Below, piece after piece: positions 19,205-35,562 of a stretch of 53,172 nt of DNA. The stretch comes from Chloroflexota bacterium (GTDB lineage Bacteria > Chloroflexota > Dehalococcoidia > SZUA-161). Numbering within the stretch: the first letter of the stretch is position 1; every line of letters starts with the position of its first letter. The notes under the pieces are model-generated. The model was not told the DNA's origin. It worked only from the letters and a program-made list of their open reading frames with translations, and did no database searches. The stretch spans positions 1 to 53,172 of the forward strand of contig JAJYLC010000004.1 of the NCBI GenBank assembly GCA_021787935.1, written 5' to 3'. Made by a program: the position numbers and the translations under genes.

Positions 19205-20122
19205 TTACACCGAAGAAATAAACCTCTCAGCAGTGATTGCAGCGGTGGCACCGTCTCCGGCAGCCGAGACTACCTGGCGTATCGACCCTGCCCTAATATC
19301 GCCGGCAGCGTAGATACCCGGCACTTCTGTTTCCATCTGCCCATTAACCGGAATAAAGCCAACTTCATCCAGGGTAAGCAGATTTCTAAGATAATCTGTG
19401 TTGGGGCGCAGCCCAACAGCTACGAAAACGCCTGACACCTCCACACTTGAACCTTTTCCGGTCTTCACATTCCGTAACTTGACTTCCCTAACCTGCTTGT
19501 CGCCTGTGATAGAATTGACCACCGAATCCCAGACAAACTCTATCTTGGGATTAGCAAATGCCCTATCTTGAAGTACCTTGGTTGCCCTTAGCTGGTCACG
19601 GCGATGGATAACCATCACCTTTGTGGCAAATCTGGTCAAAAAAAGGGCGTCGTTGATAGCAACATTGCCTCCACCCACCACTGCAATTACTTGATCTCTG
19701 AAAAATGCCCCATCGCACATAGCACAGTAGGAAACACCCCTCCCTAAGAACTCTTCCTCGCCCGGCACCCCTAGCTTGCTATGCTCAGAGCCTGCAGCGA
19801 TAATTACAGCTTTGGCGCGATACTGACCCTCGCTTGTAATAACTATTTTTTCGTCCTTAATCTCAATCCCCTGCACCTCAGCGAAAGCAGTCGGTAAACC
19901 ATACTTTGTTGCTTGCTGGGCTATCAGGGCACCGAGCTCGGAACCAGATATCCCCTGGGGAAACCCGGGATAGTTCTCCACCATCTCTGCATTCAATATC
20001 TGGCCCCCCAGCCCTGCTTTTTCGATGAGCAAGGTATCCAACTTTGACCTGGAGGCATACAAGCCAGCACTGAGCCCCGCAGGGCCACCGCCTATGATAA
20101 TCAACTGGTAAGTCTCGTTCAC
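19205..20122 (-). CDS. trxB: Thioredoxin-disulfide reductase
   Basis: GGGPAG, VENYPG, GVSYCAMCDG, HRRDQLRA, AAGD. Confidence 0.95.
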   Translation of the reverse strand: MNETYQLIIIGGGPAGLSAGLYASRSKLDTLLIEKAGLGGQILNAEMVENYPGFPQGISGSELGALIAQQATKYGLPTAFAEVQGIEIKDEKIVITSEGQYRAKAVIIAAGSEHSKLGVPGEEEFLGRGVSYCAMCDGAFFRDQVIAVVGGGNVAINDALFLTRFATKVMVIHRRDQLRATKVLQDRAFANPKIEFVWDSVVNSITGDKQVREVKLRNVKTGKGSSVEVSGVFVAVGLRPNTDYLRNLLTLDEVGFIPVNGQMETEVPGIYAAGDIRAGSIRQVVSAAGDGATAAITAERFISSV

Positions 20123-20321
20123 CTTTTATCCATCCACTCCTAACGGTTTCAAAAAATTACCGCACCATGCCACTTAGCAGATTGATTTTACCATAACATG
20201 CATAGCGGAGGAACAAGTTTTTACTTGCAACGCCAAAGATAGTAGAGGAAACACAAATGGTTTTCAAGCCTTAACGGCTGTAAAATCCCATCAGCCGCCC
20301 TCGGGGATTAAGGCTTAATAT

Positions 20322-20657
20322 TTAGCCTTTACCAGTCAGAACATCATCCAAATGTTTTTTCAGTTCCGCCTTGGGCCTTAGTCCTACTATTTGTTTCACC
20401 GGTTTCCCATCTTTAAAAAGTAAGAGGGTTGGTATGCTGCGAACTCCATACTCCGTTGCCACCTTGGGGTTCTCGTCAACATTCACCTTCCCGAAACCCA
20501 CCTGCCCTGCATACTCACCAGCCAATTCTTCCACAGCAGGTGCAATGGCTCGGCAGGGTGCACACCATGGAGCCCAGAAGTCTACCAGAAAGGGCGTCTT
20601 AGCCTCAATTACTACCCCTTTGAAGTTTTGGTCATCTACCTTGAGCGGCTGTGTCAT
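20322..20657 (-). CDS. trxA: Thioredoxin
   Basis: VDFWAPWCAPC, SIPTL. Confidence 0.95.
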   Translation of the reverse strand: MTQPLKVDDQNFKGVVIEAKTPFLVDFWAPWCAPCRAIAPAVEELAGEYAGQVGFGKVNVDENPKVATEYGVRSIPTLLLFKDGKPVKQIVGLRPKAELKKHLDDVLTGKG

Positions 20658-20718
20658 AGATACCTCCGGAACAATTTTAACTCGTGAGACTGCTCAAACA
20701 GGCTAATTATCTACGGTT

Positions 20719-21735
20719 CTAGCCCCTTATGGCCTCCACTGCCCCGAACTCCATAACCCTTTTTGCCTTCAGCACAGCATTCTCTATCGCTTTAAAGTTG
20801 CTGCGCCCGTGAGCGACAACAACTACACCCTCTACCCCCAAGAGCACAGCACCGCCATACCCGGTATAGTCCAGTGTGCCGATAACACTGTTTAAGACGG
20901 GACCCAAGACATTGACAGCCTCGTTAAGCTTCGGGTTACCATCCACAGCTTCCCACAGAGTATGGAGAAGCATTTCGCCAAGACCTTCACCCGTCTTAAG
21001 CAGCACGTTGCCCGTAAAGCCGTCAGTCACCAGCACATCGGCTACCCCCTTCGAGAGGTCTCTACCTTCCACATTGCCGATGAAATTGATCTTGGCTTTT
21101 TTCAGCAACTTATGTGCCTTTTGCACCGGCGGGCTGCCTTTCGACTCCTCTTCACCGTTTGAGAGCAGCGCAACTCTGGGATGCTCAATTTTGAAGATTT
21201 TCTCCATATAGATACTTCCCATATGGGCAAACTGTACCAGCATCTCAGGTTTGCACTCGGCATTGGCCCCGATATCAAGGCAGAGAATGGGCCCTGCCGG
21301 AAAGGGGAAGACAGCACCCAGGGCAGGGCGATGGACACCTTTTTTCTTGCCCAGGGTCAGCGTGGCCGCCGTTACTACAGCCCCGGTATTACCGGCGGAG
21401 ACGAATGCTGACGCTTCCTTGTTCTTAAGCAGGTCAATCCCTACCACAATGGACGAGTCTCTCTTGTTCTTAATAGCCCACACCGGAGAGTCACCCATCT
21501 CTATTACCTCGCTGGCATCTGCAATAGTAATCTTATTGCCAGTGTACCCGCATTTCTCCAATTCTTTTTCTAACCTGTCCTCCGGCCCCACCAACACTAT
21601 TTCCAGCTCACCTTCCTTTTCCGCTTCAACAGCGCCCTTAACTATCTCTTCCGGCGCATGGTCCCCACCCATGGCATCCAAAGCAATTTTTGTCTTTTTA
21701 TTATTTGTTTTCTTGGGCTCTTTTTTCTTCGCCAC
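20719..21735 (-). CDS. plsX: Phosphate acyltransferase PlsX
   Basis: IALDAMGGDHAP, SAGNTGA, LDIGAN, NGEEESKG, DGFTGNVLLK, HGRS. Confidence 0.95.
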   Translation of the reverse strand: MAKKKEPKKTNNKKTKIALDAMGGDHAPEEIVKGAVEAEKEGELEIVLVGPEDRLEKELEKCGYTGNKITIADASEVIEMGDSPVWAIKNKRDSSIVVGIDLLKNKEASAFVSAGNTGAVVTAATLTLGKKKGVHRPALGAVFPFPAGPILCLDIGANAECKPEMLVQFAHMGSIYMEKIFKIEHPRVALLSNGEEESKGSPPVQKAHKLLKKAKINFIGNVEGRDLSKGVADVLVTDGFTGNVLLKTGEGLGEMLLHTLWEAVDGNPKLNEAVNVLGPVLNSVIGTLDYTGYGGAVLLGVEGVVVVAHGRSNFKAIENAVLKAKRVMEFGAVEAIRG

Positions 21736-21774
21736 TGACTATCCTTTCTTCCAGTCGCAGCGCCTGCTCACAGA

Positions 21775-22360
21775 CCCATAAGGTCAGCACAACTCAAGGC
21801 ATATCCTTTATTCCACATCCCATCCATCTCTAATATATTATGTCAAACTCTACAAATACAGCGCACCGTTCTGCGATATGCAGCAAGGTTCTGTTTTGAA
21901 GCGCCTGCTCACCGAATTCTTAGTTCTAATTCCGAGCCGCAACGCTTGCTAACCTGAAAGCTTGCGTTCCTGCGGCACAGACCTGGTTCGGCCAAAATCG
22001 ACAACCCTACGCCACTCGTGATGATAGGTTCTAAATCCTGACTAACGATTCGCGACGGCAGTAAGGTGTGTCGGGGACATAATAAAGAGCAGCCAAAAAC
22101 TGAGCGGAGACCTCGTGCCCACCCACATCAGCGCCTCTGGTAGAGCCCGTTAGATAGCAGGCGCTGCCTGTGGTGCATACATCACGGATCATCAGATCAG
22201 TGGGAAATTGTCCCTTGGTTTCCCCGAGTCTTCGCCGAACTACGGCGACTGGCTTGCCCTGAGTACAGAGATAATTACAGGTAATGGACTTATCCGCCCC
22301 GGCGATAACAACGCACTTGGCAGCCACCGAGCCGATATTAACACCGAGGCAACCGTCCAT
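21775..22360 (-). pseudogene. Decayed CoA-substrate activase (BadF/BcrAD, HgdC/PlsA-like ATPase)
   Basis: The 22031-22360 ORF has degenerate GIDVGS/TTGS motifs (GVNIGS, TTGSA). Homology continues downstream across frameshifts and stops: VVDFG, NQVCAAGT, QALRLGI, EFGEQAL, IAERCAVFVEFD. Confidence 0.85.
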
Positions 22361-22394
22361 CTTAATCCCTCGTTACCTTAAGCTATGGCCAAGG

Positions 22395-23879
22395 TCATTC
22401 AGGCTGTGTGCTTTCTTTTCTCTCTTTTCTGGTGTAATACGCTCTCTTTCTACTTTGTATCTTCTCCGGAGGATGGTCCATCACTTCCATCCACCCTTTA
22501 GCCCAATTATACTCATTCTCAAAGATAGGCGTAAATAGCTCTTCGACCTCATTGCTATATTTATTCAGACGTTCGCCCAGTTCAGGATCGGTAAAAGTCT
22601 GTTCAGCTCCCTCGTGAGTTGGATAAGCGCCCCACCTCTGGATAGCAGTGCGCATTATTTTAGGATGGTCAATAATTGGGCAGGGAAGCAAGGTGTTGTA
22701 ACTGAAGGGCTGCATTTCCCTCAACCCCCTGAAGAAAGGCGAATTGAGCGCCTCCGGCAATGAGCAATTTTTAACATTATTGGTTGCGAAATGCACAAAG
22801 ATACAGGGTTCTACGTCACCCTTATGATTGATGTGGAAATAGATGCGACCTCCGTTTATGCAGCCAGCCGTGAGCGGACCATCGTTCCAGAAATCGATCA
22901 TGAGTATCGGTTTTGTCTTGCGAAAACGGTTTACCGCCAGCCTTAATTTGTTCCTTTGCTCCGGCGTAGGCATCATAGAAGGATCAGGGTCGCGTCCTAC
23001 TGGGATGTATAGGAAATACCAGCCATACATCGCTCCCCTGTCAATCAGCATGTCCATGAACTCGTCGCTGGTAACTGCGTCGACATTTCCCCGGTCTGCC
23101 TTGACGCTGAAACCGAAAAGACAACCGGCTTCCCTGAGATTATCCATGGCTTTCATCGCTCTCTCGAAGGCACCTTTGCCTCTGCGAGCGTCTGTCTGTT
23201 CCTCAAAGCCTTCCAGACTTATCATAGGTGCTACATTACCCATGTTGACCAGCTTGGCAGCCATCTCCTTATCGATCAATGAGCCGTTAGTATAAGGCTG
23301 GAAGCAAGCCTTGGGATGTTTTTTGAATATGTCCAGCAAAGGTTTGTAAACGAAGGGCTCCCCCCCGAGTATGGGCATGAACTTAATACCGATTTGCTCT
23401 GCCTCGGCAACTACCCTATCGAACACCTCAGGCGGCAAATCATCGTCCCTGGTATAGTTTGCCGCATAACAGCCATTGCACTTGTAGTTACATCTCATGG
23501 TAGGGGAAACCAACATAACAGAAGGAGGATTGAAGCCGTACTGCTTCCTGATTCTATCGTATATTTGCTGGTCGCGGAAGAACAGGCTGACTATCATATT
23601 TGCCAGGTAATTCTTGCGCACCTTGGGATTCAGACCTTTCAGAATTCTGGTAAGGAAAGGCCCTCCTGGATTGCCTTCTGCAAGCCAGTTATCGATCCAG
23701 GCAGCGATCATCTTTTGATGCTCTGTCTTGGCAATCCTGCCGAATGTCGAACTCAAGCGCCGATAATTATTCTCTGAAGAGTGGCTGAGCAGCATCAAGG
23801 ACTGGCTGAGAATGTTTTCTGCAATCTCACGTTTCAGCTTCCCGTAAAGCCCCCTCCCCTGAACCAAGACGGTACTCAT
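22395..23879 (-). CDS. Radical SAM/SPASM-type protein
   Basis: SPTMRCNYKCNGC, GGEPF, YTNG, DFWNDG..GC..G..YFHIN..GDVEPC, PCPIID. Confidence 0.9.
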   Translation of the reverse strand: MSTVLVQGRGLYGKLKREIAENILSQSLMLLSHSSENNYRRLSSTFGRIAKTEHQKMIAAWIDNWLAEGNPGGPFLTRILKGLNPKVRKNYLANMIVSLFFRDQQIYDRIRKQYGFNPPSVMLVSPTMRCNYKCNGCYAANYTRDDDLPPEVFDRVVAEAEQIGIKFMPILGGEPFVYKPLLDIFKKHPKACFQPYTNGSLIDKEMAAKLVNMGNVAPMISLEGFEEQTDARRGKGAFERAMKAMDNLREAGCLFGFSVKADRGNVDAVTSDEFMDMLIDRGAMYGWYFLYIPVGRDPDPSMMPTPEQRNKLRLAVNRFRKTKPILMIDFWNDGPLTAGCINGGRIYFHINHKGDVEPCIFVHFATNNVKNCSLPEALNSPFFRGLREMQPFSYNTLLPCPIIDHPKIMRTAIQRWGAYPTHEGAEQTFTDPELGERLNKYSNEVEELFTPIFENEYNWAKGWMEVMDHPPEKIQSRKRAYYTRKERKESTQPE

Positions 23880-24025
23880 TGCCCCTCCCTTATAAGTGGA
23901 TGTTCTCGGTAGCGTCGGAGCAACTAGCTACACCCTTAATTCCGTGGTTCTACCCTATTCCCCTCTTCTTCAATTGAGTATAACATAATCGTGCAAGAAG
24001 CTAATAGCTTCCGTTGTTGTCACAC

Positions 24026-24054
24026 AGTATAGATAGAAACATTGAGCAGGTCAA
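24026..24054 (-). promoter_or_regulatory. Putative promoter of the radical SAM gene
   Basis: Minus strand TTGACC-17 bp-TATACT. Confidence 0.65.
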
Positions 24055-24134
24055 GCCTTTTGTATTGCTAGTTCAAATATAGAGACCTTACATATTCGTT
24101 ACATCTGCGCTCAATGTGAATAGTCCGCCGCCCT

Positions 24135-24512
24135 CTAGCTTACTGCATTCTCAATATGTTCCAATCGTGAAATCCTGTTGTCAGGGGTAAGTTCCACAGC
24201 TACAACATCGATACGCCACGATAGCGGCTGCCTATCATAGGCTTGCAGATAAGCGTCTGCCAGAGAAATCAGCTTCGCTCTCTTCAAAAATGTAACTGAC
24301 TCCTCCGGTGTGCCGAACGCAGTATTTCTTTTCGTTCGTACCTCTACAAACACCAGGCAATCGCTCTTTTGGGCAATTATGTCAATCTCGCCCTCCCGGC
24401 AGCGGAAGTTTCTCTGAATTATTTTATAGCCATGCTTCCTGAGGTAATCGGCTGCCAGCTTTTCCCCGATGGCTCCAGTTTCCTTGCGTTTCAGAGACAT
24501 GTCTTTTGCCAT
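24135..24512 (-). CDS. yraN: YraN family (UPF0102) endonuclease-like protein
   Basis: GAIGEKLA, RNFRCREGEIDII, LVFVEVRT, WRIDVVA. Confidence 0.92.
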   Translation of the reverse strand: MAKDMSLKRKETGAIGEKLAADYLRKHGYKIIQRNFRCREGEIDIIAQKSDCLVFVEVRTKRNTAFGTPEESVTFLKRAKLISLADAYLQAYDRQPLSWRIDVVAVELTPDNRISRLEHIENAVS

Positions 24513-24573
24513 TATCTCTTGCTCTCCGATTAGAAGACGTTGGTTTGAACCCCTCTCTACCGGTTCATAGTTG

Positions 24574-26727
24574 TCACACCTTCTGCAGTGGCGCTAAGCT
24601 GAGCAGGAACTTCTTTACCCCGGCATCCCCCTTAAACGCGATGGTGACTTCATAGTCATCGCCAGAAGGCGAGCTGCTCACTACGATACCCTCGCCGAAC
24701 ATAGCATGGGTAACGTGTTCCCCCGCTTTGAGGGCTGGTTGAGACGGTAAAGAGGCGGTGGAGCTGGGTTTTACTCGTTTATCAGTATCGACAGGATGAG
24801 CATTAGGGGGAGCCACTAAATCCAGAGGGATGTCTTTAAGGAAACGCGATGGCGGGTTGTGAGCGCTGCTCCCCATGAGGCTGCGGCGCAGGGTATAGAC
24901 AAGGTATACCTTCTCCTTGGCCCTGGTTATACCCACGTAGCACAGACGGCGTTCCTCCTCCATCTGCTCCGGGTCGGGGAGCGACTTAAAATGCGGCAGG
25001 ACGCCCTCCTCCATACCGACAATGAACACCACGGGGAATTCCAGGCCTTTAGCCTGATGCAGCGTGATCAGGGTCACCGCATCTACTTTTTCGTCCAGTT
25101 CATCCACATCGGAGACCAGCGCCACCTCTTCCAGAAAGGCCGCCAGAGCTTCCCTGGGTTCGAGGTCTTTGTATCCGGCGGCCACAGTGCGCAGCTCCAG
25201 GATATTGTCCCACCTCTCCTCCCCCTCCGCGCCCTCCAGGGTGAATTTCTTATATCCTGTCCTCTCCAACACCAGGTCGAGCAGGTCCGCCAGACTCAAC
25301 TCCCCACTTCGGGCTATTAATTCGTCAAGCATCTTCACGAAATTGCCCAGTGTCTGCGCGCTCCGTGCCGAAAACGGCGTTTGTTCCTCGCCCTGCGCAA
25401 TAAGTTTGAGGGCATCGTAATATGACAAACTTTTCTCGTTCGCCCACATGGTTAGCTCGGCGACGGTGCGCTGCCCGATGCCCCTGCCCGGAACGTTGAT
25501 AATACGGGTGATGCTGACGGTATCGCGGGGGTTATGTGTCAGCCTGAGATAGGCCACGACATCCTTGACCTCGCGCCGCTCATAGAACCTGGTGCCGCCT
25601 ACCAGCCTGTAGGGCAGTCCGTAACGAACGAACTCCTCCTCAAGAGCACGTGACTGGGCATTGGTGCGGTACATGATAGCACAATCCCCCGCCTTCCAGT
25701 GACCGCTCGCCATCAGCTTCTCTACCTCGTTGACTACAAAGTGGGCCTCCTCCTGCTCGTTATAGGTCTGCACCACAGTGATGGGCACACCCACCTTGTT
25801 CTCCGTCCAGAGCTTCTTCTGCTTCCGCTGCTGGTTGGGAGCGATTACATGCTCGGCAGCCTTGAGGATGGTCTGAGTGGAGCGGTAATTCTGCTCCAGG
25901 AATACAATCTTGACATCAGGGTAATCTTTCTCAAAGTCCAGGATGTGGCGCAGATTGGCCTGCCTCCAGGAATAGATAGACTGGTCGGGGTCGCCCACCA
26001 CGCAGATGTTGCGATACTTCCCAGCCAGTTGCTTGGACAGGATATACTGGGCCAGATTGGTGTCCTGAAATTCGTCTATCATCACGTGTAAGTAGCGGGA
26101 CTGATACTTTGCCAGCACCTCGGGCTTGTTGCGGAAAAGCTGCACCACTCTCATAATGAGGTCATCGAAATCAAGGGCGCTGTTCTCGGCAAGTAACTCC
26201 TGATAGCGCTCGTACACCCGTGCCACCACCTCCTCGTAATAGCTTCCCACCTGCTGCCGGTACTCCTGTGGTGCCAGCAGTCTGGCCTTGGCAGCGGAGA
26301 TAGCCGTTCCTATGGCGCGCGGAGGATATTGCTTCGGGTCCAGTCCCACCTGTTCGATGCTATGCTTCAAGAGGCTGTTCTGGTCTCCTTCGTCATAGAT
26401 AAGAAAATCCTTGTTCAACCCGATATGCTGTGCTTCAACGCGCAGGGTGCGTGCGCAGGTGGCATGAAAAGTACCCAGAGTCAGCCCCTCTACAGTGCGT
26501 CCCAGGAGGTGATATACCCTCTCCTTCATCTCCCGGGCTGCCTTGTTGGTGAAGGTAACTGCCAGGATACGATACGGGCTGATGCCCAGTACAGTTATCA
26601 GATAAGCCACGCGGTGAGCGATGACGCGAGTCTTGCCCGAACCCGGGCCCGCTACAATGAGCACCGGGCCCTCGATGGTCTGAACAGCTTCCTTCTGCGC
26701 CGGATTTAAGTTGGCTAAAATGTCCAT
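24574..26727 (-). CDS. pcrA: UvrD/PcrA ATP-dependent DNA helicase
   Basis: LNPAQ, AGPGSGKT, DEFQDTN, GDPDQSIY, LEQNYRS, TLHQAKGLEF, EEERRLCYVGITRA. Confidence 0.95.
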   Translation of the reverse strand: MDILANLNPAQKEAVQTIEGPVLIVAGPGSGKTRVIAHRVAYLITVLGISPYRILAVTFTNKAAREMKERVYHLLGRTVEGLTLGTFHATCARTLRVEAQHIGLNKDFLIYDEGDQNSLLKHSIEQVGLDPKQYPPRAIGTAISAAKARLLAPQEYRQQVGSYYEEVVARVYERYQELLAENSALDFDDLIMRVVQLFRNKPEVLAKYQSRYLHVMIDEFQDTNLAQYILSKQLAGKYRNICVVGDPDQSIYSWRQANLRHILDFEKDYPDVKIVFLEQNYRSTQTILKAAEHVIAPNQQRKQKKLWTENKVGVPITVVQTYNEQEEAHFVVNEVEKLMASGHWKAGDCAIMYRTNAQSRALEEEFVRYGLPYRLVGGTRFYERREVKDVVAYLRLTHNPRDTVSITRIINVPGRGIGQRTVAELTMWANEKSLSYYDALKLIAQGEEQTPFSARSAQTLGNFVKMLDELIARSGELSLADLLDLVLERTGYKKFTLEGAEGEERWDNILELRTVAAGYKDLEPREALAAFLEEVALVSDVDELDEKVDAVTLITLHQAKGLEFPVVFIVGMEEGVLPHFKSLPDPEQMEEERRLCYVGITRAKEKVYLVYTLRRSLMGSSAHNPPSRFLKDIPLDLVAPPNAHPVDTDKRVKPSSTASLPSQPALKAGEHVTHAMFGEGIVVSSSPSGDDYEVTIAFKGDAGVKKFLLSLAPLQKV

Positions 26728-31113: not shown

Positions 31114-31452
31114 ATGGACTGCATCTTCTGCAAAATCGCTAACGGTGAGATCAAGAGCGAAATCGTCTATCAGGATGAGACCACAGTCGCCTTCCCCGAC
31201 ATCAATCCCAAAGCGCCGGTGCATCTACTCATAATACCCAGAAAACACATCGAGCGCATTCTCGACCCTGCTGGTGATCAAGAAAAGCTTATAGGGCATC
31301 TGGTAACCGTAGCGAGTAAACTTGCCGAGCAACAGGGCATCTCTAGATCAGGATACCGCCTCGTGCTCAACCGCGGTGCCCATGGCGGTCAGGTTGTTCC
31401 GCACATTCACATCCATCTCCTCGGCGGCCGGCAAATGAGCAAGATGGGCTAG
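31114..31452 (+). CDS. Histidine triad nucleotide-binding protein (Hint/HinT)
   Basis: DCIFCKI, DINPKAPVH, GQVVPHIHIHLLGGR. Confidence 0.93.
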   Translation: MDCIFCKIANGEIKSEIVYQDETTVAFPDINPKAPVHLLIIPRKHIERILDPAGDQEKLIGHLVTVASKLAEQQGISRSGYRLVLNRGAHGGQVVPHIHIHLLGGRQMSKMG

Positions 31453-31479
31453 AACACCTCCACTACTTTCCTCATGTTC

Positions 31480-31707
31480 TTGCGAGGCCATCCGCAGGAG
31501 GCCGCGGCGTAGGTCATTACGTCATTCTGACTCTGAGCAGAGCGAAGGGGAAGAATCTCGCTGCTCGTTTATTCCACTATCAATATACAGTATGTCATTT
31601 CTTGGGAAATAACCTTAATTATGGGTAGGTCGGAGCACCCGCTCCGACTGAGCTCGGCAGGCGCCCCGTGTTATTGCGAGGCCATCCCAAGGAGGCCGCG
31701 GCAATCT
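31480..31707. repeat. Cluster of REP-like elements
   Basis: TTGCGAGGCCATCC..GGAGGCCGCGGC at 31480 and 31674; GTCATTCTGA..GCGAAG..GAATCT at 31521; GGGTAGGTCGGAGC..GCTCCGAC at 31623. Confidence 0.75.
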
Positions 31708-31810
31708 CTCGTGCCCCTCACTGAGACAGTAACAATGATAATCTTTCCCTCCCTACAGCATTCGCCATAATTTCGTATCTCGCACCCCAACCCCCTGCGA
31801 CATTTTCCTC

Positions 31811-31840
31811 TTGACATTATTAGAACATATGTGCTACTAT
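31811..31840 (+). promoter_or_regulatory. Sigma70 promoter with a LexA (SOS)-like box in its spacer
   Basis: TTGACA (31811)-18 bp-TACTAT (31835). AGAAC-ATAT-GTGCT at 31822-31835 has one mismatch to AGAAC-N4-GTTCT. Confidence 0.7.
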
Positions 31841-31965
31841 ATCGCCTGCGCAATCTCGCTGGAGTGAAAAAATGAGGCTTTTGAGACTGGCAATCGAAAC
31901 CCGGAAATGGGAGTTGGCAGCCCACGTCTTGATCTTGGGAGCTATTAAAGCAAGGCAGAGCGATA

Positions 31966-32316
31966 ATGACAAGCCCCGCATCAAAAACAAGGAAAAGTAC
32001 CAAAGGCAAGGTAAAAAAGCCTGAGCAGAGCTTCTACTCCAGAGCCCTGGACGAAGCCGAGGGCCTGGATTTCGAGTTGGCCCAGGATGTTGAGGGCATA
32101 GACGACGAGATTGCCCTGCTCAGGCTCAAGATAAAGTCTATCCTTGAGAGCGACCCCGACAATATAAAGCTCATTGCCGAAGCGACCAACGCCCTATCTC
32201 GCCTGGTCATGGCGCGCTACAAGATGGGCAGTGCACACAAGAAAGCCCTGGCCCACGCCGTAGGCGGCGTACTGAAAGACCTTGCCATACCGCTGGGCAT
32301 CAAATATTTACCGTAG
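31966..32316 (+). CDS. Putative terminase small subunit-like protein
   Basis: 116-aa helical protein with basic N-terminus, FYSRALD and DDEIALLR, immediately upstream of TerL. Assigned mainly by position and size. Confidence 0.5.
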   Translation: MTSPASKTRKSTKGKVKKPEQSFYSRALDEAEGLDFELAQDVEGIDDEIALLRLKIKSILESDPDNIKLIAEATNALSRLVMARYKMGSAHKKALAHAVGGVLKDLAIPLGIKYLP

Positions 32317-32329
32317 CATTCTATTTCAT

Positions 32330-32385
32330 GGGTAGCCTGGAGCATCCGCTCCAGGAGCGGCCGGAGCAGGTGCTCCGACCTACCC
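32330..32385. repeat. GTAG-type REP doublet between the terS-like and terL genes
   Basis: GGGTAGCCTGGAGC..GCTCCAGG and CGGAGCAGGTGCTCCGACCTACCC; the latter is the inverse of 31623-31645. Confidence 0.8.
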
Positions 32386-32402
32386 GTTAAAAACTGCCAA
32401 AA

Positions 32403-33788
32403 ATGATTACACTTAGGCCCTACCAGCTCGAAGTAGCACGCGCTGTCGCCGACAGCGTGGTGAACCGCAGAGGTTTGACCTTCTCGGTCGAGATCGCCCG
32501 TCAGGGTGGTAAGAACGAGCTTTCCGCTCAGCTCGAGGTGCTTCTCCTCACCCTCTTCATCGAAAAGGGAGGCAACGCCATAAAATGTTCCCCCACCTTT
32601 CAGCCGCAGACTTTCATCTCCCTGACGCGTCTGAAGGATAGGCTCAACGACTGGGGCTATGCCGAACTCTGGAAAACCGAGATGGGCCATATCCTGAGTC
32701 TGGGCAACGCCCGTCAGATATTTCTCTCCGCCGATGAGTCAGCGAACGTGGTTGGTAACACCGCCCATATACTGCTCGAGGTCGACGAAAGCCAGGACGT
32801 TTCAAAGGAAAAGTACAACAAGGAGTTCAAGCCTATGGGCGCCGCTACCAACGTCACCACAGTCCACTACGGCACCACCTGGGACGACTCGACCTTACTC
32901 GAACAGGTGAAACAGCTTAACCTGGAGCTGGAGAGAAAAGATGGCATAAAACGTCACTTTCGCTATGACTGGCAGGACGTGGCAGCGTACAATCCCCATT
33001 ACCTCAGCTATGTCCAGGTAGAGAAAGCTCGGCTGGGAGAGAGCCACCCGCTGTTCCTCACGCAGTATTGCCTCCAGCCACTTCACGGCTGCTGTGGTTT
33101 CTTCAGCCCACAGCAGCTCGACCAGCTTCAGGGCACACACATGCGCCGCAGCGCGCCGAAATACCCGAAAACATACATCGCCGGCATAGACCTTGCGGGC
33201 AGCACAGAAGAGGCGGCCGATGCTAAGTTGCGCTCCGCCAGACCTAGGCAGGACTCCACTGTGGTCACCATCGGAGAATTGGACTTCTCAGTCTGCAGCG
33301 ACATGGTGCCCCTGCCGCAGGTCAACATCGTAGAGCACTGCTGCTGGACAGGCAAACCTCACGTGGAGCAATATCCGCAGTTACTCGATGTTCTCAAGAA
33401 TGTCTGGGGGGTCAAAAGGGTAGTTGTGGATGCAACCGGCGTGGGAGCCGGAGTTGCCAGCTTTTTATGCGGCGCACTGGGCATGCCTGTAGTTGTCCCC
33501 TTCCTCTTCACTCAGGCATCCAAATCCAGGCTGGGCTTCGAGCTGCTGGCAGCGATAAACTCCGGCCGAGCCAAAATGTACGCCCGGGACGGTTCGGAGG
33601 ACTACCGTGAGTTCTGGTTTCAGATGGTGAAGGCCAGGAGCACCTTTAGAGCCAATCAGACCATGGACTTCTATGTCGACCCTGCCGTAGGACACGATGA
33701 TTTTCTCTCCAGCCTGGCCCTGCTGGTCGAGGCAGCGCGATATACTCCCAGGTCGGCCCGCGGGCATCTGCGGGAGGCAGCTTTATGA
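32403..33788 (+). CDS. Phage terminase large subunit
   Basis: LRPYQ adenine-binding motif, Walker A ARQGGKNE, Walker B LLEVDESQ, RNase H-like nuclease motifs AGIDLA, VVDATGVG, HDDFLSSLAL. Confidence 0.85.
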   Translation: MITLRPYQLEVARAVADSVVNRRGLTFSVEIARQGGKNELSAQLEVLLLTLFIEKGGNAIKCSPTFQPQTFISLTRLKDRLNDWGYAELWKTEMGHILSLGNARQIFLSADESANVVGNTAHILLEVDESQDVSKEKYNKEFKPMGAATNVTTVHYGTTWDDSTLLEQVKQLNLELERKDGIKRHFRYDWQDVAAYNPHYLSYVQVEKARLGESHPLFLTQYCLQPLHGCCGFFSPQQLDQLQGTHMRRSAPKYPKTYIAGIDLAGSTEEAADAKLRSARPRQDSTVVTIGELDFSVCSDMVPLPQVNIVEHCCWTGKPHVEQYPQLLDVLKNVWGVKRVVVDATGVGAGVASFLCGALGMPVVVPFLFTQASKSRLGFELLAAINSGRAKMYARDGSEDYREFWFQMVKARSTFRANQTMDFYVDPAVGHDDFLSSLALLVEAARYTPRSARGHLREAAL

Positions 33789-34063
33789 GAGAAGACATTG
33801 AGCCCATCTTCGATTCCCTGCCTGAGTACTCAGAGTACCGTGACCAGGGCTGCGACCTGTCCCCCTCTTGCCTCAAGTGTCCCCTGCCCAGATGCCGCCA
33901 CGATAAGCAGGAAGGAAGCAGGCGTGCATCCAAAAGGCTTAGAAACATGGAGATTTTCAGGCAGCGAACTGCGTCAGGCAGGAGCATATCCGAGCTGGCG
34001 AAAGAATTCGACTTGAGCAAACGTACCATCCAACGCATTATCAGGAGGTTGTCCGGTGAATAA
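33785..34063 (+). CDS. Small Cys4 + HTH DNA-binding protein (Mor/C-like C-terminal HTH)
   Basis: C-x5-C-x2-C-x4-C then RNMEIF..GRSISELAKEFDLSKRTIQRII; ATGA overlap with the terL stop. Confidence 0.7.
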   Translation: MREDIEPIFDSLPEYSEYRDQGCDLSPSCLKCPLPRCRHDKQEGSRRASKRLRNMEIFRQRTASGRSISELAKEFDLSKRTIQRIIRRLSGE

Positions 34064-35471
34064 CGAAAACATTGCAGGCACGAAGAAAGGCTATACACGG
34101 GAATCTACAAATAATAACCTGACCTTGCCGCAGCAGATAAACCGCATGGACACGGACAGACTGAGGGAATACCGCGAGAACCTGGAGTTCTACAGCGGAT
34201 CGCAGTGGCTGGGCCGCTCCCGTTCCCGTGAACGGCGGCTTACTTTCAACTATGCCAAGGTCTTCGTGGACAAGATCACCAGCTATCTCATGAGCGGGCT
34301 CAGCTTTGCCATAGACCCGGTTTCAGCCGATGACAGGGAGAGAGCCCGCAGAGCAGAAGAGGCCATATACAAGGTATACGAGTCCAACAATCTGGAGCAG
34401 CTCGATTTCGATACCGAGCTTGACACCGCAATTATGGGGGATGGCTGTTACAAAGTGACCTGGGATTCGCGAGAGCGCCAGGTAAGGGTATCGGCGCCCG
34501 ATGTACAGGGTATTTTCGTCTGGTGGCTCGGCGATGATGTCACCCGCGTATGGCGCATCGCCAGCCGCTACCAGCTATCAGCTGACGAGGTCAAATTCCT
34601 TTACAATGCAGGGGCGACACGACACATTAATCCTGCCACAGGCAAATCCCAATCGACTGTAATCGAGGTGTGGACAGAGAGGAAATTCGAGCTATGGATT
34701 GACAATACGCTGTTCGAGCGAAAGGCTAATCCCTATGGCTTCATTCCCTTCGTCATTTACCCCAACCTCAGGGAGCCCAAGAAGTTCTGGGGAGTTTCCG
34801 ACATCCCCGCGCTTATAGAACCGGCGCGGGAGCTGAACCGCGCTCTGTCCCAGCTTTCCTTAATTCTGGAGCTCTCAGGCAATCCCATCGCCGTTCTGGA
34901 GAATATCGAAAACGCCCAGGACATAGCTGTGCAGCCTGGGGCGGTGTGGGAGATACCAGAGCGCGCCAAAGCATACCTCCTCGACCTGTTACAAGGAGGC
35001 GGGGTAAAGCTGCATGTGGACTATATAGACCTGCTGTATCGCACGCTGCACGACCTTTCCGAATCGCCGCGCACCGCCTTCGGCGACAACGAGCGTGGCC
35101 TCTCCGGGGTGGCCCTGGAGATGGAGCTTCATCCTCTATTACAAAAGGTGAAACGCAAGCGAACTATCAGGACATCTGTGTACCGGCGGCGTAACGAGTT
35201 AATACTGAGGGTGCTGGAGAAGATGACAGGCGAGAGCTTCGGCGATTACCGCTCCCGCATCATCTGGGGGCCGGTCTTGCCACAGGATAGGGGACGCCTG
35301 GTCCGGGAAGAGCAGATACTGGTCGGCTCCGGCGTACATTCACGGCGCAGAGCGATGGATGAGCTTGGCGTAGAAGACCCCGAGGCAGAGTTCGGACGCT
35401 GGCTCGAGGAAGAAGAGAAGATACCTTTAACCCAGAAGAAAACCACAAGTGAAGATGGACAAGGGGCTTAA
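34056..35471 (+). CDS. Phage portal protein (SPP1 gp6-like)
   Basis: 471 aa downstream of TerL; FYSGSQW, TFNYAKVFVD, NPYGFIPFV, GVSDI, SGVALE and WGPVLP segments typical of gp6-like portals. Confidence 0.8.
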   Translation: MNNENIAGTKKGYTRESTNNNLTLPQQINRMDTDRLREYRENLEFYSGSQWLGRSRSRERRLTFNYAKVFVDKITSYLMSGLSFAIDPVSADDRERARRAEEAIYKVYESNNLEQLDFDTELDTAIMGDGCYKVTWDSRERQVRVSAPDVQGIFVWWLGDDVTRVWRIASRYQLSADEVKFLYNAGATRHINPATGKSQSTVIEVWTERKFELWIDNTLFERKANPYGFIPFVIYPNLREPKKFWGVSDIPALIEPARELNRALSQLSLILELSGNPIAVLENIENAQDIAVQPGAVWEIPERAKAYLLDLLQGGGVKLHVDYIDLLYRTLHDLSESPRTAFGDNERGLSGVALEMELHPLLQKVKRKRTIRTSVYRRRNELILRVLEKMTGESFGDYRSRIIWGPVLPQDRGRLVREEQILVGSGVHSRRRAMDELGVEDPEAEFGRWLEEEEKIPLTQKKTTSEDGQGA

Positions 35472-35517
35472 GCCCCTTGTCCACAAAGTAGGGGCACAGC
35501 GCGCTGTGCCCCTACTT
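35456..35517. repeat. Two adjacent palindromes (REP-like) at the portal 3' end
   Basis: TGGACAAGGGGCTTAAGCCCCTTGTCCA (overlaps the portal stop) and AAGTAGGGGCACAGCGCGCTGTGCCCCTACTT. Confidence 0.85.
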
Positions 35518-35533
35518 AAACTCAGGCGCATAT

Positions 35534-35562
35534 TTGCCAAGTACCGCTCGATGCTTTAGAAT
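35534..35562 (+). promoter_or_regulatory. Putative promoter of the NarL-type two-component pair
   Basis: TTGCCA-17 bp-TAGAAT. Confidence 0.55.

Follow-up and report, generated by a model that had tools for sequence, protein, structure and literature searches.

The DNA analysed here is a stretch of 53,172 nt (the window) that makes up the whole of contig C1 in a Chloroflexota genome of the class Dehalococcoidia (G000; 2.68 Mb in 169 contigs). ORF (open reading frame) calling on the window places a phage-type DNA-packaging cassette of intact, co-oriented genes on its + strand at positions 31966–35471. This cassette and a second operon on contig C46 of the same genome form the two halves of one gene cluster, which is best explained as a domesticated, vertically inherited and probably SOS-controlled phage-derived particle system of at least 10–11 genes. 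A role like that of a gene transfer agent (GTA) is the most likely one, and we give this reading as a whole a probability of roughly 0.6. Sequence comparison suggests that the cluster genes have descended vertically within Dehalococcoidia and that purifying selection has maintained them. A preliminary description of the DNA had proposed a host-regulated packaging module with its structural genes elsewhere in the genome. All of the checks it named that could be made by computation favoured this proposal; it had overlooked two features, a small conserved gene (orf50) and, within the promoter, a box of the LexA type.

The cassette consists of four intact genes in the same direction, encoding proteins of 116, 461, 92 and 471 aa, all on the + strand as described. 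The last three had been called translationally coupled, which is a fair term since the second and third genes overlap by 4 nt and the third and fourth by 8 nt. The last gene (34056–35471, +) encodes an SPP1-type portal of 471 aa. It scores 77.4 bits against the Pfam family SPP1_portal (PF05133, cut-off 25.5) over residues 32–455, and matches phrog_64 at 1.8e-34. No other protein of the cluster is as strongly conserved, and it is the sole portal detected in the genome.

The 461-aa protein (32403–33788, +) is a probable large terminase (TerL) with ATPase and RNase-H-like nuclease parts, on the evidence of PHROG matches, Atlas neighbours and invariant residues. No Pfam or NCBIfam model reaches its threshold on this protein, and PF17289 matches nothing in the genome. 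Its C-terminal half gives weak matches to PHROG TerL families (8.5e-6), the clusters closest to it in the ESM Atlas contain Terminase_6C/6N at scores of 0.98–1.00, and comparison with PDB profiles returns TerL nuclease chains weakly, at E 0.04. In an alignment of 23 homologs, R33, Q34, G36 and K37, D128 and E129, and D263, D343, D432 and D433 are invariant. We take these three sets to be Walker A, Walker B and the acidic residues of the nuclease; labelled in this way, they agree with the earlier statement that TerL keeps its ATPase and nuclease motifs. Homologs of TerL with 37–87% identity occur in 33 of 61 relatives.

The 116-aa protein (31966–32316, +) is always encoded just 5' of TerL. It is helical with a basic N-terminus, and 14 columns are invariant in an alignment of 23 homologs. 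The predicted structure is all helical (predicted local distance difference test, pLDDT, 66). The protein matches no family in Pfam, NCBIfam or PHROG, no known fold and no PDB profile. Its Atlas neighbours are Chloroflexota hypotheticals only, and a lead to the T5 small terminase scored 0.79, under the reliability mark. The earlier label 'TerS-like' (small terminase) could not be verified, as it draws on position, basic N-terminus and helices; by position, the protein is a small-terminase candidate. The first gene of the operon, orf50 (50 aa, 31872–32024, +), runs at its 3' end into the beginning of the 116-aa gene, in another frame. In many loci throughout the class, tblastn detects the N-terminal ~27 residues of orf50 ahead of that gene. 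Neither Pfam nor PHROG has a family that matches orf50.

The remaining gene (33785–34063, +) encodes a regulator of 92 aa with a C-terminal helix-turn-helix (HTH) domain that resembles HTH_28 and Mor (late activator). Four cysteines (C23, C29, C32 and C37) are invariant ahead of this domain, within the motif Y-x-D-x-G-C-x5-C-L-x-C-P-x-P-x-C. The motif suggests a zinc or iron-sulfur site, which would perhaps provide the system with a second (redox or metal) input.

The only Phage_capsid match in the genome lies on contig C46, together with a scaffold candidate, an adaptor, a tail hub and a tip candidate; the structural genes predicted to lie elsewhere have thus been located. The first five genes of this operon are co-oriented. 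The scaffold candidate (20029–20421) is a coiled-coil protein of 130 aa, and is followed by a major capsid protein with the HK97 fold (20618–21508; phrog_212 at 7e-78), an SU10-type adaptor (21658–22257; SU10_adaptor), a small ORF with two hydrophobic helices (22282–22623) and a tail hub of 662 aa (22713–24701). The sixth gene, a conserved tip candidate of 70 aa (~25237–25449), follows the hub in 37 of 63 loci. The hub is modelled with a pLDDT of 92. Over ~340–360 residues the model matches Mu gp44, the MuSo2 43-kDa tail protein and baseplate hubs of contractile injection systems (E values of 1e-13 to 3e-16), as well as VgrG and T4 gp27, all of them hub or central-spike proteins of baseplates, and the protein also matches viral models for 'tail protein / protein D / Mu gpP'. 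A beta-propeller with faint PDB profile matches to sialidase repeats makes up the other half of the hub. Model searches of the genome found no second SPP1-type or HK97-type portal, no other capsid, no S78 protease and no tape measure. The portal, TerL, HK97-type capsid, adaptor and hub supply the structural and packaging genes of phage origin that define a GTA. A self-propagation module, which a GTA lacks, was seen neither in the window flanks nor at the bounds of the contiguous cluster in one relative (G030), and the model searches found no phage head or tail genes in the genome beyond those of the cluster.

In four relatives at the level of the order (G027, G029, G030 and G032) both halves are adjacent and form one cluster of ~10 kb. 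The contiguous order is the 116-aa gene, TerL, HTH, portal, scaffold, capsid, adaptor and hub. The description of the cassette as stand-alone is therefore right for G000 as a derived state, the ancestral state being one contiguous cluster. In G000's own family, four host genes lie between portal and scaffold, namely a homocysteine synthesis gene (HcyBio), an unknown, a GT2 glycosyltransferase and PlsY. The same order is found across 80 loci that each represent a species, where up to 8 kb may be inserted after TerL (before HTH) and after the portal (before the scaffold gene). In several families all or part of a host block, speE/speD-Lrp-acd1-acd2-HIT, lies upstream of the cluster. The contiguous cluster in G030 is bounded by ordinary metabolic genes (ORF reading by eye). 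Outside the class, G680 and G578 show a different order of the cluster genes.

The portal is widespread in the class, and the patchy distribution that would speak against domestication is not seen. A close relative of the portal occurs in 233 of 401 sampled class genomes, mostly in single copy and with 53–87% identity, and the protein was found in 183 of 300 high-quality class genomes and 135 of 222 genera. Outside the class it was found in 12 of ~267 genomes, at 36–50% identity. At least 546 species records among the GTDB representatives carry it, and the best 80 of these are nearly all from Dehalococcoidia or Chloroflexota. Among the 61 relatives, 33 have TerL, 27 the capsid and 25 both.

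Comparison of G000 with its congeners G001 and G005 indicates purifying selection on the cluster, and no relaxation of it. The ratio of nonsynonymous to synonymous divergence (dN/dS) is 0.08–0.22 for nine cluster genes versus 0.00–0.17 for host neighbours, and dS falls in the same range for both (0.39–1.00 versus 0.32–1.17). Vertical inheritance, for which a check had been proposed, is supported by the common flanks, by these dS values and by two tests on loci with all four of the genes concerned. Thirteen of 19 candidate loci were used, a locus with a fragmentary acd2 (L099) and a duplicate of L061 (L030) being dropped. Pairwise distances for TerL+portal and for the flanking acd2+HIT are correlated (Mantel r 0.82, p 1e-4, 13 genomes), and the corresponding trees have 8 of 10 splits in common, compared with a maximum of 3 under label permutation. 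The unlinked PcrA helicase (window 24574–26727) was found in 391 of the 401 class genomes. For the 65 genomes that are among the best 150 for both proteins, identity of the portal and of PcrA to G000 is correlated (Pearson 0.78). The vertical inheritance and purifying selection typical of a GTA are both found, with linked host markers in the first two tests and a PcrA signal that is weaker at depth.

The promoter of the packaging operon (31811–31840, +), which is strong and of the sigma-70 type, has a −35 element TTGACA (31811–31816) and a −10 element TACTAT (31835–31840) with a TG, separated by a spacer of 18 nt. A 14-nt palindromic LexA-type box, AGAACATATGTGCT (31822–31835), lies in the spacer and touches the −10 element. 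This is the single match in the window, where 0.02 are expected. On C46, a sequence 89% identical to the 45 nt that surround this promoter lies 38 nt before the scaffold gene and gives the second operon a strong promoter of the same type (C46 19966–19990). The part common to the two promoters consists of the −35 element TTGACA, five bases, and the 14-nt palindrome AGAAC-N4-GTTCT running into the −10 element. The same architecture of promoter and box heads cluster operons in other species, and a strict pattern for it has 50 matches in 1.10 Mb of the 80 species loci versus 1–8 in 20 shuffles.

Matches to the box were also counted gene by gene in non-redundant species loci, with at most one mismatch and within 300 nt upstream. 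The box is found upstream of the 116-aa gene in 14 of 44 loci, of the scaffold gene in 22 of 45, and of the HTH gene, when this is separated from TerL, in 24 of 32. The control genes gave 4 of 48 loci for TerL, 1 of 33 for the capsid, 2 of 29 for the adaptor and 3 of 26 for the hub. Where the HTH gene directly follows TerL, a site of the strict pattern is present in 1 of 42 loci.

The box is upstream of lexA in 26 of 27 genomes of this order, and is perfect in 24 of these 26. Its distance to the lexA start is 9–27 nt in 25 of the 27 genomes and 116 nt in one more. A perfect copy also lies upstream of the genome's only gene for a Y-family polymerase (dinB-like). Because the same box precedes lexA and dinB, GAAC-N4-GTTC is the predicted LexA operator of these bacteria. 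This prediction agrees with a Gram-positive-type LexA site reported for Dehalococcoides ethenogenes. In the cluster promoters the box lies between the −35 and −10 elements and matches the organism's own lexA operator, so that SOS control of the cluster is likely. With a LexA-type box within the operon promoters, the host control proposed for the cassette is plausible. The HTH protein of the cluster itself was considered as the box binder and is disfavoured, since the sequence of the box agrees with the operators of lexA and dinB, and its placement is that of a repressor site.

Among genomes G000–G040, 22 have lexA together with the cluster, 2 have just the cluster, 5 have just lexA and 12 are without either, a hint only, as the genomes are kin. 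Family f2 has the cluster in 0 of 20 genomes and lexA in 2 of 11, and families f1 and f4 mostly hold both (kinship uncorrected). The regulator and the particle genes under its control may have been lost together in f2.

Taken together, these observations allow a mechanism to be proposed. LexA would repress both operons, and DNA damage would lift this repression. The scaffold and capsid proteins would then assemble on the portal, and TerL, perhaps with the 116-aa protein, would fill the heads, probably by headful cutting of any DNA at hand. Adaptor, hub and tip would seal the portal, forming a stub tail that has neither a tube nor a tape measure. As the set holds no replication, integration or lysogeny genes, the particles could not propagate it as a virus. 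GTA-like packaging and delivery of host DNA is the most economical reading, and the most likely role would be the release of host DNA fragments. A fuller version, which we advance tentatively and would not yet bet on, is a GTA domesticated independently in Dehalococcoidia, with a capsid, a three-part stub tail (adaptor, beta-propeller hub and 70-aa tip) and LexA cleavage as its switch, which would export chromosomal DNA to kin upon damage and would have been lost with lexA in whole families.

Several observations weigh against this reading. The system is known here from its genes, and the particle, its packaging of DNA and transfer are predictions. The 116-aa protein has no recognised TerS family or fold. 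No tail tube, nozzle or tape-measure family was recognised, which leaves the tail incomplete by known standards, and no lysis gene was identified, the sole candidate being the small ORF with two hydrophobic helices. With regard to regulation, the repression for which the cluster operons appear to be built presumes a binding of LexA that is deduced from the box. By the criterion used, roughly one in two of the examined operon heads has no box, and by eye 2 of the 22 scaffold matches and 4 of the 24 HTH matches look like chance. There is no box within 400 nt upstream of recA. The same promoter and box also head 13 unrelated repeat elements in G000 and so are not specific to the cluster. Whole families are without the cluster (f2, 0 of 20; f26, 0 of 25). 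The host genes compared in the Mantel and tree analyses are neighbours of the cluster on the chromosome, and among distant genomes the correlation between portal and PcrA is weak (Spearman 0.23, n=53, p 0.095). An in-frame stop is present in 18 of 150 listed portal rows, and TerL of G055 is in two frames (G055:C1:1938289–1939612).

All of the evidence for domestication would fit equally well a domesticated particle with another role, such as a PBSX-type killer induced by damage, a phage decoy or other defence, or the release or disposal of DNA; anatomy and regulation would be the same. SOS control is typical of bacteriocin-like and defective-phage particles, and the beta-propeller of the hub model could bind a cell surface. 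The invariant ATPase and nuclease residues of TerL and the strong conservation of the portal suggest that the filling of heads with DNA is under selection, an argument that does not separate killing from transfer. We consider such other roles unlikely, though a serious competitor to a GTA-like role. Decay of a cryptic prophage remnant under neutrality, with the intact frames of G000 kept by chance, would account for an element that is split and peppered with host repeats, for broken or partial copies (TerL in G055, the capsid in G017, the portal in G103 and G177), and for one species (L070) that keeps TerL, HTH and portal while the head genes are absent at the usual place. However, dN/dS is 0.08–0.22 for all nine genes measured, the portal is retained at 53–87% identity across 233 genomes, and gene order and promoter architecture are conserved throughout the class. 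Purifying selection and class-wide retention largely refute this explanation, which has a very small chance of being correct.

The cluster might also be a small temperate phage or helper-dependent satellite that is still mobile, of the type of a capsid-forming phage-inducible chromosomal island (cf-PICI), which integrates near HIT and co-diverges with its hosts. IMG/VR files 334 contigs with this portal as viral, three TerL copies occur in G050 and two capsid copies in G019, the gene content between capsid and adaptor varies by lineage, and the cluster is missing from whole families. However, the best 80 of the IMG/VR contigs are all fragments of at most 27 kb, and mapping of the 24 longest revealed an unchanged gene order and, with their flanking ORFs partly scanned, no recognised phage module beyond the cluster. 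No integrase, replication gene or att (attachment) site was found in the window, and metabolic genes bound the cluster in G030 by eye. Housekeeping genes are interleaved with the cluster, neighbouring host genes have the same dS as the cluster genes, and the cluster and host trees agree. No module for replication, integration or lysogeny was found in the window flanks, the flanking ORFs elsewhere having been scanned in part. In the loci inspected, homologs do not lie inside complete prophages. The nearest cultured phages are only distantly related, with 42–44% identity for the capsid and 24% for the portal versus 53–98% among Dehalococcoidia copies. The Pseudomonas siphophages of the Ab18/PaMx11 group and Clostridium phage FA70 have a capsid of the same family (phrog_212), and Streptomyces BRock-like phages have an SPP1-type portal in common with the cluster; their genomes are of 56–115 kb. 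Continued mobility is accordingly improbable, though less so than neutral decay, and a domesticated particle with a GTA-like role remains our preferred reading.

Damaged copies and local variants of the cluster were seen in a number of genomes. The capsid gene of G017 is in two frames (G017:C7:62529–63412), and G103 and G177, from a genus with small complete genomes, have partial portals. Damaged copies may reflect local pseudogenisation or assembly errors. The gap between capsid and adaptor holds lineage-specific genes in loci L061–L122, among them one for a LamG-like protein, present in 52 loci, and others whose products are 75, 113, 154 and 168 aa long, the longest being phrog_23653. Between adaptor and hub, a protein of ~110 aa is present in 42 of 63 loci and absent from G000. 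In L070, TerL, HTH and portal are kept at 79–85% identity and no scaffold, capsid, adaptor or hub lies between the PlsY-like and transglutaminase-like genes, the head module having been either moved or lost. Six IMG/VR loci of one lineage (L187, L188, L189, L196, L202 and L203) show a tandem duplication of the capsid gene, with copies 0.1–0.2 kb apart, and some of the loci with this duplication have no HTH gene between TerL and portal.

The 13 additional copies of promoter and box in G000 head three repeat families of 360–480 nt that are 70–93% alike (e.g. L207:6637–6677). Family A is found on contigs C15, C37, C60 and C107, family B on C19, C43, C90, C103, C109, C135 and C151, and family C on C97 and C138. 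These repeats contain no long ORF and have no Rfam match. They may be multi-copy small RNAs under SOS control or miniature inverted-repeat transposable elements that carry a promoter.

The cassette is directly flanked by host genes, as reported in the preliminary description. By family scan, a HIT gene (31114–31452) lies upstream, and a LuxR-type response regulator and a histidine kinase follow the portal; this pair has a promoter-like site of its own at 35534–35562 (promoter scan). The reported absence of integrase, replication and att sequences beside the cassette was likewise confirmed by a family scan of the window and a repeat search, and the latter detected no att-like direct repeats around the cassette. 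GC content is 0.52–0.58 in the cassette and 0.46–0.57 elsewhere in the window. The cassette thus shows neither integrase, att, lysis or replication sequences nor the foreign composition of an intact or recent prophage.

The sequences described as repetitive extragenic palindromes upstream of the cassette, between the 116-aa gene and TerL, and across the portal stop are real dispersed host repeats. They lie at 31473–31512 (15 genome matches), 31673–31730 (18), 32317–32396 (14; REP-like, between the 116-aa gene and TerL) and 35480–35519 (16). A perfect palindrome (35456–35483) spans the stop codon of the portal gene, and is followed by a perfect 32-nt dispersed host palindrome (35486–35517). The promoter, orf50 and the 116-aa gene lie between two inverted copies of a dispersed repeat (31623–31646 and, within the REP-like repeat before TerL, 32362–32385), whose arms are 715 nt apart.

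Gene order in G000 departs from that of its congeners at a breakpoint beside the 32-nt palindrome. In G001 (contig C97) and G005 (contig C2) the portal is followed by the homocysteine synthesis gene, which in G000 is on C46, and the response regulator and kinase adjoin genes that in G000 are on C44. Independent contigs of the single DNA run that covers this stretch end and start exactly at the palindrome, which means that the junction of portal and response regulator is not independently confirmed. A simple mis-join at this point is disfavoured, since C44 and C46 also depart from the order in G001 and G005, and a real rearrangement next to the palindrome, which would have separated the two operons in G000, is more likely. 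Chimeric binning of C1 and C46 is rejected, as both are syntenic with single contigs of G001 and G005.

If DNA-filled particles are made, the cluster would have been domesticated independently, and would have a tail of very small size and a simple promoter switch based on a LexA box. Dehalococcoidia are mostly uncultured bacteria of subsurface, marine and dehalogenating habit, and traits such as reductive dehalogenases move between their strains. A GTA-like system, if real, would offer a way for genes to spread in Dehalococcoidia, whose plasmids and phages are poorly known. With hundreds of genomes, states from contiguous to scattered, and families with and without the cluster, it would also provide a comparative set for the takeover of a phage module, its interruption by host genes and its loss. 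Viral-detection pipelines file pieces of the cluster as viruses (the 334 IMG/VR contigs), so that counts of 'Dehalococcoidia phages' are inflated.

Experimentally demonstrated GTAs are few, and none is known from Chloroflexota. Neither a GTA nor a conserved prophage-like cluster in Dehalococcoidia or Dehalococcoides was found in the literature searched. A close parallel is with RcGTA-type agents of Alphaproteobacteria (Rhodobacter capsulatus, Caulobacter). These likewise consist of a cluster of phage-derived head and packaging genes that contains no genes for replication or integration and is vertically inherited in a large clade, under purifying selection, sometimes split into several loci and controlled by host regulators. 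No sequence kinship to RcGTA was seen, and none was sought. The cluster described here differs in that no prohead protease, tape measure or tube was recognised, the tail consists of adaptor, hub and tip, the portal is of the SPP1 type, and the promoters carry a LexA-type box in place of control of the CtrA/GafA type. PBSX and PBSX-like particles of Bacillus and VSH-1 of Brachyspira are also fixed in the chromosome, induced by damage and filled with host DNA; for the present cluster the link to damage is drawn from the box. Their tails are complete and either contractile or long, they possess lysis genes, and they occur in a narrow range of hosts, in contrast to the stub tail, the absence of recognised lysis genes and the class-wide distribution seen here. 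Capsid-forming PICIs resemble the cluster in having terminase, portal, capsid and connector genes of their own and no full tail. However, they carry integrase and replication genes and move between hosts, whereas no such genes were found here and the cluster is syntenic and co-diverging with host genes. Compared with these systems, the Dehalococcoidia cluster is apparently an independent, differently built and SOS-wired GTA-like system.

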